From contig NC_057719.1 in the NCBI RefSeq assembly GCF_004010195.1, forward strand, positions 36,943,417-36,989,729: a stretch of 46,313 nucleotides of DNA, in the 5' to 3' direction. Of this stretch, positions 1 to 44,278 are shown piece by piece. Position 1 is the first letter of the stretch. Each line of letters begins with the position of its first letter. The notes under the pieces are model-generated. The model saw only the letters and a program-made list of their open reading frames with translations, was not told the DNA's origin and ran no database searches. The DNA comes from Chiloscyllium plagiosum. Lineage: Eukaryota. Made by a program: the position numbers and the translations under genes.

Positions 1-424
1 GGGTGAGGTGGGGAAGGGGAAATGAGGAAACTGTTGAAATCCACATTGATGCCCTGGGGTTGAAGTGTTCTGAGGCGGAAGATGAGGCGTTCTTCCTCCA
101 GGCGTCTGGTGGTGAGGGAGCGGCGGTGAAGGAGGCCCAGGACCTCCATGTCCTCGGCAGAGTGGGAGGAGGAGTTGAAATGTTGGGCCACAGGGCGGTG
201 TGGTTGATTGGTGCGGGTGTCCCGGAGATGTTCCCTAAAGCACTCTGTGAGAAGGCGTCCAGTCTCCCCAATGTAGAGGAGACCGCATCAGGAACAACGG
301 ATACAATAACTGATATTGGTGGATGTGCAGGTAAAACGTTGATGGATGTGGAAGGCTCCTTTAGGACCTTGGATGGAGGTGAGGGAGGAGGTGTGGGTGC
401 AGGTTTTGCAATTCCTGTGGTAGC
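1..424 (-). mobile_element. Penelope-like retroelement, 3' part (Cys-rich linker + GIY-YIG endonuclease), with an in-frame stop
   Basis: The minus strand reads [11 protein letters not shown]...RFTCTSTNISYCIRCS*CGLLYIGETGR...REHLRD...VAQHFNSSSH...LEEERLIFRLRTLQPQGINVDF, the typical PLE GIY-YIG domain. The + ORF 3..500 is its antisense shadow. Confidence 0.9.
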
Positions 425-1635
425 AATTTGCCTATCAGACCAACAGATCCACGTCGGATGCCATATCACTTGCCCTTCACTCCTCCCTAGAACATCTTGA
501 CACCAAGAACAGCTGCGTAAGAATCCTACTCATTGACTACAGTTCAGCCTTCAACACTATTGTCCCCTCGAGACTGATTACTAAACTTAGTGATCTCTGA
601 CTAAGCTCCACTCTCTGCAACTGGATCCTCAGTTTCCTGACCCACAGGCCACAATCAGTGAAGATTGGGGACAATATTTCATCCTCATTAACACTCAACA
701 CTGGAGCCCCCAGGGGTGCATACTCTGCACCCTACTGTGCTCACTGTATACCCATGACTGCATCACCAAATACCAGACTAATGTCAATTACAAGTTCGCT
801 GATGACACCACCATCAAATCTTAGATATCAATGAAACTGACTACAGGCGGGAGGTGGAAGACCTGGAAAAATGGTGCAGTGAGAACAACCTAGCTCTCAA
901 TGCCGGCAAAACCAAGAAACTCATTATTAACTTTCGGAGGGATGTTACTCATGCCCCCTACATATTAACAGCACAGAGGTGGAACGAGTGGTGAGTGTCA
1001 AGCTCCTGGGAGTGGTCATCCACATTAAGCTTTCTTGGACTCTTCATGTGGATGCACTGGTTACAAAGGTCCAACAACGTCTCTTCTTCCTCAGGTAGCT
1101 GAGGAAATTTGGCATTACGGCGAATAACCTTACCAACTTTTATAGGTGTGGCTTCGAGAGTATTCTGTCTGGATGTGTCACTACCTGGTATGGCAACTGT
1201 ACCATTCAAAATTGGAGACGGTTATACTGAGTGAACTCAGCCCGGACAATCACAAAGGCCAGCCTCCCATCTATAGAAACCATCTACCAGGCCCGCTGTC
1301 AAGGAAAGGCCTCCAGTATTCTCAAAGATCCATCCCACCCTGGCAATGCTTTACTACAACCTCCACCATCGAGGAGAAGGTACAGAAGTCTGAACACATG
1401 CACCAGCCGGTTTCATAATAGTTTCTACCCTACTGTTGTTAGAATACTGAATGTGCTCACAAACTCTTAACATCCGCCTATACCTGTGTTTTTGTTTTTG
1501 CCACTGTTTTTCTATTATTTACTATCTATGCTTCTTAACTCTGTGACCTACCTGTATTGCTCGCAAGACAAAGCTTTTCACTGTGTCTCAGTACACGTGA
1601 CAATAAATTCAATTCAATTAAATTCATTCAATTCA
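424..1635 (+). mobile_element. Rex1/Babar-type non-LTR retrotransposon, 5'-truncated, decayed RT and 3' end
   Basis: [26 protein letters not shown]...[15 protein letters not shown]...GAPQG...KFADDTT, then C-terminal ...ASSILKDPSHPGNALL...RFHNSFYPTVVRILN. Ends in AATAAA plus an (ATTCA)n tail at ~1602-1635. Confidence 0.85.
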
Positions 1636-7345: not shown

Positions 7346-8340
7346 TTTGAAAGGTTTGGAATTTCCCACTAACAACACCCTGGAGGTTATGATTGACCTG
7401 AAACTGAACTGCACTAACCATATAAACACTATGGCTACAAGAGCAGGTCAGAGACTGGGAATTTTACAGTGGGTAATTCACTTGACACCACAAAGTTTGT
7501 CTGCCATTTCCCCTGAACCTTCTCCATTTGCATGAATGAATGTGCTCCAACAAAGATCAAGAAGGTTGACACTATCCAGGACAATCTGCTTGATCCACAC
7601 CTCATTGACTAAATTAAACATTTGCTTTCTCCACCAAAAACTCAGTGTCAACCTTGAGTACTATGTACAAGATGCACTGTAACAAGTCACCAAAGCTGCT
7701 TCTACAGCAACTTCCAAACTTGCAATCACTACTACCTGGAAGTGGTAGTGATTGCAAGGGCAGTGGACATATGGGGACAAGTTCCCTTCCAAGCCACAAA
7801 GGCATCACCTTGACTTGGAACTATATCACCATTCCCTTACTGTTACTAGATATTAGTCTTGTAGATCCCACCCTAATAGAACTGTGGGAGTACCTGCCCC
7901 AGATAGATTACTGAAAGTCAAGAAGGCAGCTCATCACTACCTTCTCAAGGTCAATAAATGCTGACCATATCAGCAATGCCCACAATCCATGAAAGCATAA
8001 AAAATGATTGTGTGCTGAAAGGCAAGGACCTATTTAAAAAATCAACAAAGTGTTGAATGGCCATTGATTTTACCTGACACCAGGGAAGGTTTCCCTTTCT
8101 CATTAAGTCTACTTAAGAAATATGCCCTTTTATAATTAACAGTTTTATAAATTTGTTACACAGAGAGAAATTTTACTTCTAAATTGAGACATGGATCAAT
8201 AAATAATTTAGATTATTTATCTGTTTGAAATGGTTCCAAACAAATTCCAACAATATAGACCATCTACTGACTTTGACTGTCATTATGTTTATAGTGTGAG
8301 CTTTGCAAACCTCATCAATGGTCCTGTTTCATTCCTTTAG

Positions 8341-8484
8341 GTGAAGCAGATTGCTCCTGAGTACTATGACAACCTGCCCCAGCACTCTTCGTGGGTGCGT
8401 GTGCTCTGGGACTTTGTTTTTGATGACAGCATTGGTCCTTACTCCAGGATTAAGAGGGAGTGCAAGCTGGTAAAAGATGACTGA
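8341..8484 (+). CDS. DEGS2: Sphingolipid delta(4)-desaturase/C4-hydroxylase DES2, last coding exon
   Basis: Acceptor gtttcattcctttag|, phase 0, reading [62 protein letters not shown] and GPY match DEGS2 better than DEGS1, and it is convergent with EVL as in human. Confidence 0.92.
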
Positions 8485-8567
8485 GAAATAAAAGAAATCC
8501 TGTGAATCCTGGAAATCATTAACAAAACTCTGAAAATCTGCAAACAAACTGTGCCAGGTTTGTTAAC

Positions 8568-8804
8568 CATGTTTTGGAGATACCGGTGTTGGACTGGGGA
8601 GTACAAAGTTGAATATCACACAACATCAGGTTATAGTCCAACAGGTTTAATTGGAAGCTATAGCTTTTGGAGCACTGCTCCTTCATCAGGTGATTATGGG
8701 GAGTGGTTCTCCGCAACCACCTGATGAAGGAGCAGCGCTCCGAAAGCTAGTGCTTCCAAATAAATCTGTTGCACTATAACCTGGTGTTGTGTGACCTCTA
8801 ACTT
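8568..8804. mobile_element. Fold-back Penelope-derived element (inverted pseudo-LTR arms), 12-bp TSD, minimal hammerhead motif
   Basis: Arms ~8608-8700 and ~8710-8804 are reverse complements. TSD aggtttgttaac at 8556-8567 and 8805-8816. Confidence 0.85.
8718..8752 (+). ncRNA. Minimal type-I hammerhead ribozyme motif (Penelope type), core intact
   Basis: cac-CTGATGA-a-ggagc-agc-gctcc-GAAA-gcta-gtg: conserved core boxes, 5-bp stem II, palindromic AGCT in place of stem III, 3-bp stem I (cac/gtg). Confidence 0.7.
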
Positions 8805-10449
8805 AGGTTTGTTAACAACTGTAAAGAGAAAAGAAAAAAGAATCAACAAGTAGATTCAAATTGCTTACCAGCAGATTTCCTGCTTTTCTGACAACTGATC
8901 TGTGCAGTCAATCCATAAAAATTATGTCAATATTAAATAAGATCAATAACCAAATTAATTATGTAACTTTTAGCGCTGTTTCAAATTACATCTGATTACT
9001 TTTTGATGTATTTTTACCCATAAAGATTAGATTTAGATTTTAACATGATGTTCGTTATATTTTGGAATAATATTAAACGTGTCTAAATTGAGTGTCGATG
9101 TGAATGGACACTGAAATGAATCAGAATGAGACTCTCTCTTCTTGAGAGCTCACTATGGTTAAGATTAGCCCCAACTCCACAGTCAGGCAGCATTTAAACA
9201 GCAACATTGATTTGAAGTGAAACTACTTGATAGCATCAATCCAGTTGTCATATGAACCTACTACTAGATTGTGTGTAGCTTGAGGAAGATAACAATTGTT
9301 ACTAGGCAGCCAGTTTCACAAATTTTCCATCCATGCTCAAAAACAGATTGTTGTTGCTGGAATAAAGCTGTCAATGTCAAGAAATGTATTATTGCTGTGA
9401 CATTTAAAGGATGTTTCCACCTCACTTGAAACGCTTAAATCTTATAAAACACACAATATGCTCAGATCAATTTGTCACACACACAAAAAAAAATGCATGA
9501 AGGTGCATAAAATCCATTTGGTCTCAGGACTCCAACATCTCGAAGAGTAAACTCAACTCCAGCATTGTAAGAGTTAATCTCAGGGTTCAGTGTCAATTAG
9601 CTGCACTTTCCCATACCAATAGTTCTGGGTCCCCTGCTGGAAAATCTATTTAATTGTCGTTAAAATCACTTGTGCGGGCAATGTATTGGGAACATATGGC
9701 TGTAACATTATGGGTAGTTACCTCATCAGATAAAATGCACTTCCAATGACATCGCTGTTGCCTGACTAATTTATCATACTTCCTCTGCTGTACATTGTTT
9801 TTGAATTAAGTTAAACCTTCCTCATTAATGAGGATCCCAACTTTACAACTGTGACCAATAGAACAAATTCTAAATGTCATTAGTTTCCAATTGTTGCACA
9901 CATCAGCACCCACTGACTGGAATTCACTTATCCAGTAACCACTCCCATGCAAAACAGATGTCATGCCTCTGCTCCATTGCAGAGTTCCTAATGAGCTAGT
10001 GTGCGAATGTGGAGACTGTGATGCAGCTGTTTTTCACAGGTCGCATAGAACCTAGTACCTGACAGATAGCTGAAACAGCAACATAGCACAAAGTACGTGA
10101 TCAGAATCAGCTAAATCCCTTGGTCTTGTGCTTTTATGAGCCAAATCAAAACTGTCCCAACCCTACTGTGTTTGCACAGACTGATGAAATCAGTTTTCAA
10201 TGGAGCGATTACACTATCATTTATTTCATTACTAATGGAAATATGGATGTAAATTATATAATGATATTTGCTTTGTAGAATGTTTGGATATGTCTACGTA
10301 CACATATATATGAAGCTTCAGATTTGTAAAAAAAGCAGACCAATTTGTGTACTTAGTATTATCTCATATTTCATTTGCTGTTTAGACATTTAGTTTAGCA
10401 ATTGAAGCATTGATAGATATAATCCAAGTGACACTGCTTCAACCAGCAG

Positions 10450-10595
10450 CTTGTTTCGGGCACATTTTTGTTTCTTTCTGTTTCTGACTACATTAAAACA
10501 GTGATTACTCTTCAATGTACTTTGTAGCCTGTGAAGCACTTTGAGATGTTCTGATGTTGTGAAATGTACTATATAAATATAATGACTTCTTTTCT
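10450..10595 (+). mobile_element. Deu-domain SINE (SacSINE1-like) 3' tail relic
   Basis: tgtgaagcactttgagatgttctgatgttgtgaaatgtactatataaat resembles the DeuSINE tail. Reverse-orientation copies at ~14070, ~15930 and ~35660. Confidence 0.5.
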
Positions 10596-11469
10596 TGATC
10601 GCTCTACTTTGATGTCTTAATTCATAGTCTGCGAATGTTACCTATTGCCTTAAATAAAGAGGAAATAATATAATTTGTGGCATGATTCTTTATACTGTCA
10701 CATATACTGTCAAATCATCCTTGATAAGAGGTTGAGTGAATGTGGAAAAAAAAATCTCTTAAATAATGAGATTGTAAAACATAAATACTCAAATAATTCT
10801 TCACAGATTACTGCTGAAGGGCCAAATGAAAAGAATCTTGGTGAATTTTTTCAAAATTATCCTGTTGTCATTTTATATAACTATTAGACTGAGGACTGAA
10901 TAGGCAATTCTGGCTATAGCAGGTTGGTTTTGGGTTTAAATCTCAGGTTTGACTCCTATTTTAGCCAGGATTCGGGTATTCTGTGCAGCTAGGCACAAAT
11001 ATATGTGTACACATAACACTTCTCACAAAGGAAGGAAACGTTCTCTATGGGATGCCTCCCCATCAGTTGATGTGGAGAAACATCATTGGCAGCCATGAAA
11101 TCTGTGACCTAAATTACTCTGAACAGATGGGAATGAACGTAAAGAGCTTCTCCTTCTGCAATAAGAATTGTGTGTTATCTTTTAGAATATATACATTAAT
11201 TCCTTCTCTATTATTATATTTTAATGCAGCCATTTATATGCAAGCTATTTAAATCAAAAAGTTTAACCTCTTTTTAAATAAAAAAAGGGACTAATACAAT
11301 GCAATAACCAAAAATATCAGTGAATAATAAGTGTAAAGAGGAAATTAAACTCCCAGGGATAAATTATGACTAATTATGAAATAGAGAGTAGCACCCCTTA
11401 GATATGAAAGTATTTGAATATTGCTTGAGTCAAGTATTTCAAATTCCTTAGAGACATTCAATTATAACA

Positions 11470-12150
11470 ATATTGTGGTTGACAAATCTGTCAGAGGTTT
11501 TTGAAATTGTAGCTAGCTGGGTAGATAAGGAGGAATCAATGGGTACAGTGCATTGAATTTTCGAAAGAAAACTTAGTATGGCTTTGCACAAAAGTTATCA
11601 CATGAAATTAGAGTTTATGGCATGAACATGCCGTAAGGTTTGGCTAATGGACAAAAAGGAAGTTGGAATAAATAAGTCATTTTTCAGTGACAGGCTGTAA
11701 GTAGTGGAATACCAGATGAACCAATGCTAGGACCTCAAATATTTACAATCAATATGATAACTTAGACGAAGGAACTAAATGTAGTGTTTGCTGATGGTTC
11801 AAAGTAAGGTGTGAAGTACGTTGTGAAAGGGAGCAAAGATGTTGAAAAAGATTTAAGCAGATGAAATGAACGGTAAGAGACTGGAAATGCTGGTATTCAG
11901 GCAGGGCTGGGAATTACAATCAACACAGCAAGAAGATAAGAAAGCAAATATACTTTTATCTCAATAGAGTATACTGAAAGTATAAAGGAGTCTTTCAATT
12001 ATATAGGCTTTCCAAATGGCATACAGTTTTGGTTTGTTTATTGAAGGAACAATATGAAGAGAGGGTACATAAATGTTCACTAGATTAATTCCTGAAGTGA
12101 GGGGAATGTCGATTGAGGAGAGATTGAACAAAATGGGCACATGTTCCTTA
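11470..12150 (+). mobile_element. Highly decayed CR1 RT fragment
   Basis: Remnants of LTNL.EFFE..DK.E...NF.K, SG.P.G..LGP..F.I and FAD motifs. Confidence 0.6.
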
Positions 12151-13739
12151 AAAAAGCCCGAATTTTAGTCAAATAGCAAATCGAGAGGAGTTTTGGGTTA
12201 GATGTGATCATCACTGGTTGTTAATAATAAAAAACACATTGTTAAATCAATTTATTTGTTATAATGATTACATTTCAAAGCTTAAATTGGAAGATTGTAA
12301 TACAATCTGTTTGAAGTCAAATATTTCATTTTTAAACTCTTCTAGCGGGAATGAAAATGTTATTTTTTAACATAACATCATTGTCTGAATGAATCTGCGT
12401 AAAATTGAGGCTATTTCTTGATTTGGTTTTATTGACTTGTGCGAACCTCAGTTTGATCATTAGATGTAGCATTCCAAATTAGTGAAACCAAAACTTCACC
12501 AAGATGGCCAGCGGTAAGGTTGTGGAAGAAGTGTTCTGCCCTTCTAGTGAAAGCAGATTATAATGAACTTTAATTTTTGAGTGAATCTTTTGAAAATTTT
12601 TGTTAATGAAATAAATATTTGCAAAATCTTGCAAGGACCACAATTAAGAACAGTTCTGTTTAGCATAAATAGTTTTAAGAGTTAATGTAATGTCATGATA
12701 TCTTTCTAATGTTTCTTATGGAAATAATATCATTTAGTGCTTGCTGTGTTTCTGTGATTTTTTTTGAAAATAATAAATGAAAATTAAATTTGAAATAAAA
12801 TTGGTTGAGCACAAATTGTGAAATTATTTGATTGTTTATTAAGTATGGAGTATACTCAAATGTGGGAAAAACTCTTGGGTATCAACTCTATTATCATTGC
12901 TCACAAACAACCAGGAACCTACTTCCATAATTTTAAAAGGAAGAGTCTAGTTTTTCCTCTGTTCTTACATAACCAAGCCTCTCTCTCTAAGTGAACACAC
13001 TCCTTTTTTGTCCTTTAGCATGTGTTGTTCTTTGTTTCAATGTTCAAATGGTGGTTGTTGTTTTACTTCCTTGATTTTGGTCTAAACCGGAAGTATTTCT
13101 TGAAACAAAGCTTTACCCTGCTGCCAGGTAGCATCGTTCTGGTTCCCAGTAGTTCACCATCATGTCAAAACAGGAATAAGCTAATTTTGTTTTAACAATT
13201 CAAGAAAACCTAAATGTTTACAACACCTTTGGATCATCTCAGACATATATCACTCCATTTGTTGGAAATTCAGCATCATGAAGTCACAAGTGTCCACAGC
13301 AGATCGGATGGTCAACTTCCTTCCCTAAAGAAATGGTGGGATTTGAATTTGTGACACTGGGCATTAGCCTGGGACTCTGGATTACTAGTCCAGTGACAAT
13401 ACCACTACTTTGATCCCAAAGCATCAACTCTTCCATAATTATAGGTTGACCCAAGTTGTTCTAGATTTTTGTTGATCTAAGGTCATTGGATCTTATGATT
13501 TTCCACACACCTTGCTTCACCTGATGCTCCCCTCTATTTATTCTGCTTGAGCTATTTGCGTCTGAGAAGCCAAAAGATTAAATTGATTTAAACAGTTAAA
13601 AAAGAGCATGTACATAACTAATTACATGCAGATTTAATTCCTAGCCTCACATTCCTTGATTCTCTATAAACTCTGCACATATCTCCTATGTATGTGCTCA
13701 AGCAGTTGGTAATTGTGGCTTTCGGTTCATGAAATTACT

Positions 13740-18457: not shown

Positions 18458-18611
18458 TAGGAGAAAGTGAGGACTGCAGACACTGGAGGTCAGAGTCAAA
18501 AAGTGTGGTGCTTGAAAAGCACAGCCTGATGAAGAGCTAATGTAGGAAACGTTGATTCTCCTCTCCTGAGATGCTGCCTGACCGGCCGTGCTTTACCAGC
18601 ACCACAATTTT
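18458..18611. mobile_element. Short fold-back Penelope-derived element, 18-bp TSD, degenerate hammerhead
   Basis: TSD tgactattgtcaatctgt (18440-18457) / tgactatggtcaatctgt (18612-18629). Inverted gtcaaaaagtgtggtgct / agcaccacaatttttgac. cctgatgaagagctaatgtaggaaacgtt has a broken stem II. Confidence 0.75.
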
Positions 18612-24603: not shown

Positions 24604-26818
24604 TTTATTTCAAAACAGAAAAGGAAAATCTAATTAATTGTTAATCTTTAAAATCCAGGCTCCAACGTATAAACTAGACATCAAACATGTTAATATGTGG
24701 GGAGTTCTCTGGCTGAATTGCCAGCTAATCATATTACAGCTCCCGGCATTTAATTTTTTTTTAAGTTTTGTGCGAGTTTCTTTACATGGTAAATTGCCCC
24801 AAACTATTGCCAAAAGCACAGTGGATAACTTCATCTTAGGGAGATGTGCAGCTCTCAATTACCACAGTGCACAGTGGAACTGAGCAGAGCAATGTTGTTC
24901 TGAAGATCAGGGCAGCTGCACTCTCACTCTCTCCCGTTCAGGTCCCAGTATTTACAAAATGGGATTAATCATCCTAAAAACATTTTTTCCCTCAGATGTT
25001 ATTCGACTAAATAAGTCATTGAGTTGTGTGCCATTGGATAGGGCATTGAATACCCTTTAATTTGCTGAATAAAAAAGACTAAAGCAGAACCAGAAATCTT
25101 TTTAAAACCTGGTCCAGAACTCCAGGATTTCAGCAAATCCAATTGAACACAATAATAAAGAAGGCTTTCATGAAATGGGTCTCCTATTTTTCATTTTATT
25201 TTCATTTCATCTTCATTTTCATTCTGCCTGTTCTCCATTTCATCATTGTTCTGGCTGGTTCAATTGCTCTTCGTCTCCTACCAGCTTTCTATTGGCTCCC
25301 GTGTTTCCCAGTTCACCAACCAACCCAGTACATTGCTGTCATTACTATGAGATTACAATAGCTACAGCTGCTCGTGCTGCTCTTTCTAAATCTTAACATA
25401 AGTCAAGAGACCATATCATAATAAACTAGCTTTCCATGCATTGTTGAATTTGAGAGACTACTAACAGGATCCACCACGACGTTATAGCTTGTTTTGAATG
25501 TTTAATTTATAATAGTGAGGGATTATTAAAACACAGTAATCTAGAAAAATGACATTAAACAGGTTCAATTATGAGCTGAAATGTGATTAATTTTAAAGAT
25601 GGCATTTTGGATTTCGAACATGTTTTGCAGATAAAACAAATTTGTTTGAAATCCAGTTGATCTTGATCTTGTATGAAATGCATTACAGTGTGCCACCTGG
25701 TGTGTACCTTTTAAAGTACAACTGAACCTTCCCACTTCAGTAACTTAATTTATCTTATTTGAAACAACATGGATGTCTATTTTATAAACTTTGGGTTTTA
25801 ACACAGAATCTTCCTATCCATATGAAGATGCTCTGCATTTGCTCAATGCTGACCCAGTCCCCTCTATAACATAATTGTTGGCAATCAATTCAAAGATATC
25901 CAATTAAATTCAGTACATGCATACATACACTGTTGCACTTAAATATTTTTTATGGCATAGGACCAAGTTGACAGCTAACTCTGCAGTAAAGGAGACATTT
26001 AACAGTTCTAGCTCCACTGAGGATTTGGTTAATCTAATTCTAGTGCTATAATAGTTTGTGAGATGCTATTTACCTGGAAATACTTCTGGGCATTCCGCAA
26101 TCAACGCGCCATCTCTATAGATCATGGTGATTGGTACATGGAACATTTCTACTAACTATAATTAATTTGAAATTCTGTATCACCTGCATTCTAACATGAA
26201 CATAAACAATTTTGCATTGATGTACCTTGTTTTAATAAGGTTTGAAAGATTTGTTGAGAAATCAGTTACCATTGTCATATCACAACTTTTACAAGTTTCT
26301 GCCTTTTCAATAATGCTACAAGGATCTCGTTGTTGGCAACAATTTTCAAAACAGAGTCAAAAATACTGTGGTAACATCTTAAGATAGAAATAACAACTTA
26401 TTTGTCTACTAAAAGCAAAATGTGTTTTGTGTTTGTGTCTGTACTGAAGCTCTTCTCTAAAAACATAATCTAGAAATAATGTAAACCTTTAAATAAACTA
26501 ATAAAAAATTACAAAGGCTAACATAAAACAGATGTGCAATTTTTTTTGAAAAACCTAGAAAATAAGATCCACAAGTATTAAAATTATTGAAAGTTTTTTG
26601 TTGTTTTGGATAATTATTAAGACTTTTCATGTGAAGCAGATCCAAGGCAGTAAGCAGCAGAGCATATTGAGTCCACTAATCAATGAAGGGTTTAAAAGCG
26701 ACCGTGACATTCAGTGCATAGCTTCTCTCCGAGTCATCTTCCACACAATACTCCACACAGCTGTCTCATCTTCCCCAATTCCTTTCAGAACTTCCCACGT
26801 TTCAGAGTGCAAAATTCA
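24604..26818 (-). other. EVL: Probable EVL 3' UTR (candidate signals ATTAAA ~26231-26236 and AATAAA 24604-24609)
   Basis: AT-rich stretch following the stop codon with no transposon I recognise. The true end cannot be determined from sequence. Confidence 0.45.
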
Positions 26819-26856
26819 TTACGTTGTACTGATTCTGCTCAATTCTTCTCTAATGG
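26819..26856 (-). CDS. EVL: EVL last coding exon (end of EVH2 tetramerisation coil)
   Basis: cattgtattttag|CC ATT AGA GAA GAA TTG AGC AGA ATC AGT ACA ACG TAA = (A)IREELSRISTT*; human AIRQELSGISTT*. Confidence 0.95.
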
Positions 26857-27441: not shown

Positions 27442-27717
27442 TACTAAGATATAGTTACAGTGCAAAGTTTTCATTTAAACTATGTATTTTAGATCCCTAT
27501 TGAGGAACAGCCAATCATTTAATATCCAGTAATAGAATTTTAGATAAATTTTATAAATGATGGCAATTTAGATTAAGTTAAATCGAGTTTGGAGAGCTAA
27601 CTAATTACAAGGGACCATCAAAACATCTTAAAGAAATAGAGCACATTGGAGAATCCAGTCCCTCAAACATGTTGGTATTTCACTGTTTATCACAGTCAGC
27701 AAGAAAATAGTGCCTAC

Positions 27718-27775
27718 CATCAATAATTTCTTCCTTCACCTTGTGCAGCTCCTTGACGACTTCCTCCAGTATTTC
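27718..27775 (-). CDS. EVL: EVL penultimate coding exon
   Basis: aacag|EILEEVVKELHKVKEEIID+G|gtaggc; 58 nt, phase 0 to 1; near-identical to human EVL. Confidence 0.96.
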
Positions 27776-27953
27776 CTGTTGAGTTTAAATTATAAAAAAA
27801 TGCAAGCTGGTTTGTACAAGGTCTGGAAGGGTAACTCTGTACATTTTAACTGAGCAGTTCAAAGTAAGATTTGTTATTACTTTGAAGATTAAAAATGCAA
27901 ACTACTTTATGGGAAACATTTAATATTTGATAGCCTCTCCAGTTCAGACATAC

Positions 27954-43689: not shown

Positions 43690-44020
43690 TGATTTGGAGG
43701 TGCTGGTGTCAGACTGGGGTGTACAAAGTTAAAAATCACACAGCTCCAGGTTATAGTCCACAGGTTTATTTGGAAGCACTAGCTTTCGGAGCACTGCTCC
43801 TTCATCAGGTGGTTGCAGTGTGATGTAAAAGATGAGAGACCTAAACAACAGGTCTTTTCCAATATATAATTTCAGTTACATTACACTGTAAATTTTTGCT
43901 ATAAATTCTGTGTATTATGATCTTATACTCCACAACCACCTGATGAAGAAACAACGCTCCGAAAGCTATTGCTTCTAAATAAACCTGTTGGACTATAACC
44001 TGGTGTTGTGTGATTTTTAA
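43690..44020. mobile_element. Fold-back Penelope-derived element (same family as 8568-8804), 13-bp TSD
   Basis: TSD ctctggatgggca at 43677-43689 and 44021-44033. Inverted arms around a ~110-nt spacer. Intact hammerhead core on the minus strand at ~43777-43811. Confidence 0.85.
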
Positions 44021-44048: not shown

Positions 44049-44278
44049 AGGTAAAAACAATGACTGCAGATGCTGGAAACCAGACTCTGGATCAGTGGTG
44101 CTGGAAGAGCACAGGAGTTCAGGCAGCATCCAACGAGCAGTGAAATCGACATTTCAGGCAAAAGCCCTTCATCAGGAATAAAAGCTTTATTCCTAATGAA
44201 GGGCTTTTGCCCGAAACATCGATTTCGCTGCTCGTTGGATGCTGCCTGAACTGCTGTGCTCTTCTAGCACTACTAATC
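44049..44278. mobile_element. Fold-back Penelope-derived element (second family), 17-bp TSD
   Basis: TSD cagcttacggtgggcta (44032-44048) / cagcttatggtgggcta (44279-44295). Near-perfect palindrome centred at ~44183. ctgatgaagggcttttgcctgaaa on the minus strand. Confidence 0.85.

Follow-up and report, generated by a model that had tools for sequence, protein, structure and literature searches.

Here, we found that the 237-bp insertion just downstream of the DEGS2 stop codon in the shark Chiloscyllium plagiosum is, with good confidence, a masked and neutral remnant of a Penelope-like retrotransposon (PLE), carried in a DEGS2 3' UTR of likely 4.3 kb. Judged from its sequence, the insert is most likely a folded-back, truncated end fragment of a PLE pLTR. 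A first-pass annotation of the window, i.e. the whole stretch of 46,313 nt analysed here, had drawn attention to an intact hammerhead ribozyme core in this insert and had proposed competing fates of the UTR: a masking hairpin, self-cleavage that removes the poly(A) tail, or polyadenylation donated by the transposon, unless the element were simply a neutral recent insertion.

The insert occupies positions 8568-8804, its first base lies 84 nt after the DEGS2 stop, and the two copies of its target-site duplication (TSD) are identical at 12 of 12 positions (Table 1). The TSD-flanked insert and all coordinates of the first-pass annotation were confirmed, with the detail that its span (8568..8816) takes in the right TSD and omits the left one. 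Its description of the element as palindromic holds for the two 97-nt arms, which are 84% complementary and 5 nt apart, but not for positions 8568-8605, which form a 38-nt unpaired tail. Six of the 16 mismatches in the arm duplex are G-U pairs on the + strand RNA, and the longest paired run is 22. None of 200 shuffled sequences was as stable as the fold of the insert region (-152.8 kcal/mol, z = -15.2); here and below, folding energies and pair probabilities are predictions. Two other types of element were considered and rejected. A DNA-transposon MITE does not fit repeats that are not terminal, given the 38-nt tail on one arm, and an arm junction that differs between two copies, and a retrozyme does not fit arms that are inverted, not tandem, and a single + strand core in 8341-12802.

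Table 1. Features of the DEGS2 insert, its hammerhead motif, the DEGS2 transcript signals and a second insertion of the same family (positions in the window)
Feature	Position	Strand	Basis or remark
Left TSD, 12 bp	8556..8567	+	repeat comparison
Unpaired 38-nt tail, element 3' end (PLE tail signature)	8568..8605	-	folding, copy comparison
Left arm, likely antisense pLTR fragment; hammerhead core from 8689 downwards broken	8606..8702	-	
Right arm, likely inverted 5'-truncated pLTR fragment ending at the tail boundary	8708..8804	+	
Right TSD, 12 bp	8805..8816	+	
Minimal type I hammerhead	8715..8755	+	descriptor, folding, alignment
Stem I	8718-8720/8750-8752, plus 2 bp beyond C-C mismatch	+	
Core CUGAUGA	8721-8727	+	
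Extra A between core position 9 and stem II	8728	+	
Stem II, 5 bp with 3-nt loop	8729-8733/8737-8741	+	
GAAA	8742-8745	+	
Palindromic AGCU (15.2-16.2)	8745-8748	+	
Cleavage triplet CUA	8747-8749	+	predicted cut after 8749
Element AATAAA, family-wide	8759..8764	+	unpaired probability 0.18 in context
GU-rich tract, family-wide	8783..8793	+	predicted fully paired in context
DEGS2 last coding exon and stop	8341..8484	+	translation, homology, spliced contig starts
DEGS2 stop TGA	8482-8484	+	
Proximal AATAAA, 2 nt 3' of the DEGS2 stop	8487..8492	+	passed by contigs in 3/3 contig sets
Distal tandem AATAAA (12772, 12794), likely DEGS2 UTR 3' end	12772..12799	+	contig ends
Second same-family insertion: 13-bp TSD, tail, head-to-head arms	43690..44020	.	

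The core on the + strand arm is complete, with CTGATGA, stem II, GAAA and the CUA triplet found where they had been annotated. The motif contains the G10.1-C11.1 pair (G8729-C8741) and lacks a monomeric helix III. A minimal-hammerhead descriptor written for the present analysis matched the window twice, at 8721 (+) and 43808 (-), against a mean of 0.03 matches in 100 dinucleotide shuffles, so that the motif is not a chance occurrence. On the left (-) arm, the hammerhead is broken at G12, as the first-pass annotation had noted for this core, and also at the stem I pairs adjoining the cut site. Rfam gave no match at the gathering threshold in the window, and no hammerhead family was among the six matches to 8300-9100 at E<=10; matches to miRNA models were rejected as responses to a generic hairpin, far below their thresholds (MIR841 59 bits vs 200). 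Covariation was not significant: one pair was changed on both sides among five distinct sequences, a level reached by 86 of 500 shuffles.

According to Cervera & de la Pena (2014, PMC4209133), PLE minimal hammerheads have a base between positions 9 and 10.1, a G10.1-C11.1 pair, a palindromic 15.2-16.2 and a short helix I; they form pairs on opposite strands 100-700 bp apart, with dispersed truncated copies, and number thousands of copies in coelacanth and Xenopus. A single minimal motif did not cleave, and dimers cleaved little. The DEGS2 motif resembles them in the extra base between 9 and 10.1, the G10.1-C11.1 pair, the palindromic 15.2-16.2, the lack of a real helix III, a short helix I, the dispersed truncated copies and the pairing of cores on opposite strands. 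It differs in the C-C mismatch of its stem I (3 bp, the mismatch and 2 bp; a helix I of 4-5 bp is given there), in its stem II, in which 5 bp enclose a 3-nt loop, and in the spacing of the two cores, with only ~30 nt between them. The vertebrates named in the accessible part of that paper do not include sharks.

The anatomy of the insertion can be compared in the same way. PLEs leave an inverted 5'-truncated copy, one end of which bears a tail of 30-40 bp (Craig et al. 2021, PMC8557442), and head-to-head junctions with the tail on one inverted pLTR and TSDs of 8-10 bp (Arkhipova et al. 2013, PMC3846280); inverted truncated pLTRs, a one-end tail and short TSDs are also listed in a curation guide (PMC8969392). 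The tail is the sequence between two RT start sites, both strands are cut and extended during insertion with unprocessed RNA as the substrate, and an anole PLE hammerhead cleaved only with the help of the PLE protein, its site being free of RNA-seq read ends (PMC11167929). Like these endonuclease-bearing PLE insertions, the present family shows head-to-head arms of which just one has a tail (30-40 nt), and a short TSD (PMC8557442, PMC3846280, PMC11167929). However, its TSDs of 12-13 bp exceed the 8-10 bp given for rotifer PLEs, and the DEGS2 copy, unlike endonuclease-bearing PLEs, retains no ORF.

We infer that a PLE endonuclease would have made a staggered cut, giving the 12-bp TSD, and that two short cDNAs from uncleaved pLTR RNA would then have been placed head-to-head. 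If one cDNA started at the tail end and the other at the tail start, one arm would carry the 38-nt tail and the other would not. The mechanism of Frangieh et al. would explain why one arm has a tail and the other has none, and why both would have received the whole core.

Can the shark ribozyme be linked to elements with an RT? A pattern scan of metagenomes returned two loci of a marine PLE-like element (L001:967-1001 and L002:1331-1365) with a ribozyme identical to that of the shark at 33 of 35 letters, 25 of which were fixed beforehand by the search pattern. Both changes lie in loop 2, stem I consists of 5 contiguous bp in either locus, and outside the ribozyme there is no similarity to the shark sequence. 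Pattern scans of viral contigs and of genome contigs gave no match. In L001 there is also an RT fragment, whose match to RVT_1 (E 1.4e-5) stays under the gathering score, and in L002 a 177-residue frame with two homologues that carry RVT_1, one of them also with a weak GIY-YIG match. The identity of the ribozymes may reflect either a strong constraint on PLE ribozymes or shared ancestry. The shark family is probably tied to elements with RT and GIY-YIG, through ribozyme identity and anatomy and not through a joined parent ORF. The earlier assignment to PLE-type minimal hammerheads is supported by the ribozyme features, by the insertion anatomy and by RT- and GIY-YIG-like fragments beside a matching ribozyme. 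In a literature search that covered mostly titles and abstract openings, repeat libraries such as Repbase aside, neither the shark family nor the DEGS2 locus was mentioned. Separately, a broken GIY-YIG-like remnant of the PLE type lies at 39-425 (-) of the window, unlinked to the DEGS2 insert; its linker is rich in cysteine, it contains one internal stop, and it matches L002 with E 1.8e-13.

The insert is a copy of a very abundant repeat, dispersed and multi-copy. Of 24 candidate sequencing runs, none of them on record as RNA, four were aligned. Three of these, the transcriptome-like contig sets X12, X1 and X3, which also provide the transcript evidence below, were placed on 8100-11100, with 860 of 362,064, 791 of 654,104 and 3,975 of 2,290,627 contigs, respectively. 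The summed depth in two bins inside the insert reached 14,000-194,000, compared with 5-138 in the unique flanks. In X12 and in X1, one contig matches the ribozyme as far as 8751 and from there on carries an unrelated sequence, the same in both sets; these contigs are another copy of the family, whose junction falls 2 nt beyond the predicted cut.

Within the window, a second insertion of the family (43690-44020) has a 34-nt tail, and its + arm stops at the same tail boundary as the DEGS2 insert. Its core is intact on the - arm, and stem II is broken on the + arm, the reverse of the DEGS2 insert, so that the two copies together have intact cores in two of four arms, one per strand. The AATAAA at 8759-8764 and the GU-rich tract downstream of it, to which the first-pass annotation had pointed, are indeed present, but they recur in both arms of the second copy. 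That the arms of the two copies are joined at different points suggests a separate inversion event for each of them and not a single master hairpin. Other families of this kind are present as well. A fold-back of a second hammerhead-bearing family (44049-44278) lies only ~15 nt from the end of the TSD of the second copy; it is self-complementary at 87% along 211 nt, has a tail of 30 nt and a ~17-bp TSD with 1 mismatch, and both of its cores are damaged. An insertion related to this 44049 family (18460-18611) has a tail-like start, a largely deleted left arm, a degenerate + strand core at 18526 and imperfect flanking TSDs. Overall, the 45,763 called bases of the window contain four hammerhead-bearing fold-back or partial fold-back insertions from three families.

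Does the insert lie in the DEGS2 mRNA, as the first-pass annotation had it? By translation, the exon 8341-8484 encodes the 47-residue C-terminus of DEGS2, and the product of 8341-8481 is 98% identical to shark DES2 (E 1.8e-23, the best of 37 protein matches). The contigs carry neither strand nor true expression level, and 24 of the 5,740 placed contig pieces were inspected individually. The intron upstream of 8341 has zero depth in X12, X1 and X3, and contigs in all three sets begin at 8340 with unaligned upstream letters (868 of them in an X12 contig, which matches the expectation for upstream exons); these contigs therefore represent spliced RNA. Contig 9 of X12 covers 8340-8632 with 0 differences, crosses the proximal AATAAA and enters the insert, while contig 16 of the same set starts at 8779, inside the right arm, and with its length of 4,024 ends, if colinear, at 12802, just 3' of the AATAAA at 12772 and 12794. 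X3 shows a similar pattern, with a contig of 8340-8611 followed by contig 24 from 8780 to ~12721 (if colinear). Among the 24 of 5,740 pieces inspected, no contig runs across the whole insert, and we infer the continuity of its upstream and downstream parts. Since spliced contigs enter the insert, resume past it and reach the distal tandem AATAAA, the insert very likely lies inside a ~4.3-kb DEGS2 3' UTR and is largely read through. An end of the DEGS2 transcripts at the proximal AATAAA (8487-8492), which had been named as the outcome that would speak against a role of the insert, is contradicted by contigs that pass this signal in all three sets.

Depth before and after the insert was 50 and 69 in X12, 9.0 and 5.8-8.6 in X1, and 138 and 69 in X3. 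The drop in X3, in one of the three sets, may reflect partial early termination at or before the insert. In poly(A)-selected data, cleavage followed by decay of the 5' piece would stay hidden. A raw single-cell run (X17) gave no placed reads among 8,328,510 examined (~6% of the run) and has no bearing either way. One X1 contig ends at 10645 beside an AATAAA at 10653, where depth falls from 8.6 to 2.7, which hints at an alternative poly(A) site. A convergent gene of the Ena/VASP family, likely EVL, has its final two coding exons at 27716-27781 and ~26810-26855 on the - strand (VASP_tetra, E 3e-10). An origin of the downstream contig from the 3' UTR of this neighbour was rejected, as the stop of the neighbour lies near 26.8 kb, 14 kb past the contig end, and the contig ends at + strand AATAAAs.

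Folding predictions indicate what the hairpin would mean for the ribozyme. In an isolated 51-mer, stem II forms with p ~0.89 and stem I with p ~0.13, and with the left arm present both pair probabilities are 0.0. Forcing the ribozyme fold in context costs +42.8 to +46.6 kcal/mol relative to the hairpin. The penalty holds even in nascent RNA (+34.7 to +46.6 kcal/mol, the 34.7 with an RNA that reaches 3 nt beyond the cut), since transcription yields the antisense arm before the ribozyme. A duplex of two AGCU palindromes would contribute -2.5 kcal/mol, and it is absent from the predicted dimer; moreover, 8341-12802 contains no second + strand core, so that a dimer partner is missing from the last exon. 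The AATAAA of the element is unpaired with a probability of 0.18 in context vs 0.95 without the left arm, the GU tract with a probability of 0.0 in context, and the proximal AATAAA at 8487 with 0.98. On these predictions, the ribozyme is likely masked by its own hairpin and inactive in the DEGS2 mRNA. We envisage that the antisense arm is transcribed first, that the core, the AGCU palindrome, the AATAAA and the GU tract would pair as each of them emerges, and that the polymerase would then read on to the distal poly(A) sites. From the competing fates proposed earlier, the masking hairpin thus emerges as the predicted dominant one, but a real competition does not, with the ribozyme fold 35-47 kcal/mol above the hairpin. 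Self-cleavage meets this penalty even co-transcriptionally and has no tandem partner in the last exon, and against donated polyadenylation stand an AATAAA predicted inside the duplex and contigs that continue ~4 kb further to the tandem AATAAA.

Does the intact core nevertheless betray a use by the host? Both junctions of the insertion are present in the species of X3, whose contigs break inside the repeat and whose UTR differs from the window at 63 of ~2,320 aligned positions (2.7%); the insertion therefore predates the split from this species. In X1 (organism A), coverage by unique contigs ends at 8549, 7 nt short of the left TSD, and starts again at 8823, 7 nt past the right TSD. The arms differ from the four-arm majority at 5, 8, 5 and 3 of 92 positions (3-9%). 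At 5-8% divergence, the probability of chance survival is 0.34-0.49 for the 13 core bases and 0.08-0.18 if all 31 ribozyme positions have to remain unchanged. With a chance survival of p ~0.3-0.5 for the core bases, its intactness needs no selection. Judging by this comparison, the intact core (two of four window arms) appears as the look of a young family, not as a sign of host use. Of the neutral recent insertion considered at first, neutrality is the better reading, but the insertion is not very recent, being common to species 2.7% diverged; the proposed search in other species yielded both junctions in the X3 species. The most likely residual effect would be that of any ~97-bp UTR duplex, with putative A-to-I editing or dsRNA-protein binding.

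Such a duplex could also act on DEGS2 in its own right and not as a ribozyme, through ADAR editing or the binding of dsRNA proteins, in which case mRNA stability, export or translation would change, as with inverted Alu pairs. Editing of inverted repeats in mRNAs is established, and the 97-bp arms, with 84% complementarity and a very likely position in the UTR, fit this scheme. However, there is no sign of selection on the pairing, and editing alone would be a by-product compatible with a neutral remnant, so that we regard an effect of this kind on DEGS2 as unlikely.

We consider it quite improbable that a sizeable share of the DEGS2 transcripts is a short isoform made at an alternative poly(A) site of the insert (AATAAA 8759 with the GU tract). 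The hexamer is canonical, the GU tract follows 19-29 nt downstream, and the depth of X3 halves over the insert (138 to 69). Yet the hexamer and the GU tract are predicted to be paired (unpaired 0.18 and 0.0), depth rises over the insert in X12 and stays about level in X1, and the drop in X3 could reflect the open proximal AATAAA at 8487 or the setting of a 302-nt contig mean against a 3,947-nt one.

Very doubtful is a co-option of the hammerhead as a conditional switch, in which opening of the hairpin would lead to cleavage of the DEGS2 mRNA and loss of its poly(A) tail, through trans pairing with transcribed family copies or with help from a PLE protein. The intact sense arm beside a broken antisense arm, the retention of the insertion in at least two species, the abundance of transcribed family copies and the precedent of the Clec2 3' UTR hammerheads would agree with it, but the second window copy has its intact core on the opposite arm, the penalty amounts to 35-47 kcal/mol, stem I is weak (p ~0.13) even in the isolated 51-mer, the AGCU duplex of only -2.5 kcal/mol is absent from the predicted dimer, and PLE minimal motifs are weak even as dimers (PMC4209133). 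The slimmest of chances is likewise what we give to a DEGS2 off-switch in which heavy A-to-I editing, a helicase or the PLE protein would open the hairpin and the core would cleave as a trans-dimer with transcripts of the abundant family, removing ~4 kb of UTR and the poly(A) tail. If it were true, transposon activity would be linked transcriptome-wide to host mRNA decay in sharks, because such fold-backs occur about once per 11 kb in the window.

Taken as a masked neutral remnant, the insert as it stands has little consequence: it is one more truncated PLE insertion with the usual ribozyme. Nevertheless, hammerhead-bearing fold-backs are dense in this window of the shark genome and can occupy an mRNA, and they could plausibly provide sharks with a large amount of endogenous double-stranded RNA, as inverted Alus do in primates. 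For scans of genomes, our results carry the warning that a shark UTR in which an AATAAA accompanies an intact core shows the default of the family. If cleavage of the mRNA were true, the insert would offer a rare example of a vertebrate host gene under the control of a PLE ribozyme.

In summary, on the features tested the insert belongs with the minimal-hammerhead pLTR insertions of PLEs. The 3' UTRs of primates also contain retrotransposon-derived long duplexes, in the form of inverted Alu pairs, whereas here both arms come from a single insertion event and lie 5 nt apart. Non-LTR retrozymes, as described in a preprint (bioRxiv 10.64898/2026.07.22.740005), are non-autonomous, PLE-derived elements with a type I hammerhead, are present in the one chondrichthyan sampled there, and have rare exonic copies in Xenopus that tend toward 3' UTRs. 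Their head-to-tail tandems allow dimer cleavage, in contrast to the single head-to-head fold-back of the DEGS2 insert. The discontinuous hammerhead in the Clec2 3' UTR is, according to two reviews (PMC6155905, PMC6765202), of type III, cleaves in vitro, lowers expression and is common to mammals. Both this hammerhead and the DEGS2 motif follow the stop codon of a host mRNA and precede its poly(A) signal. Unlike the Clec2 ribozyme, the DEGS2 motif is a minimal type I hammerhead that would need a dimer; its own antisense arm is predicted to mask it, and it has very many near-identical copies elsewhere.
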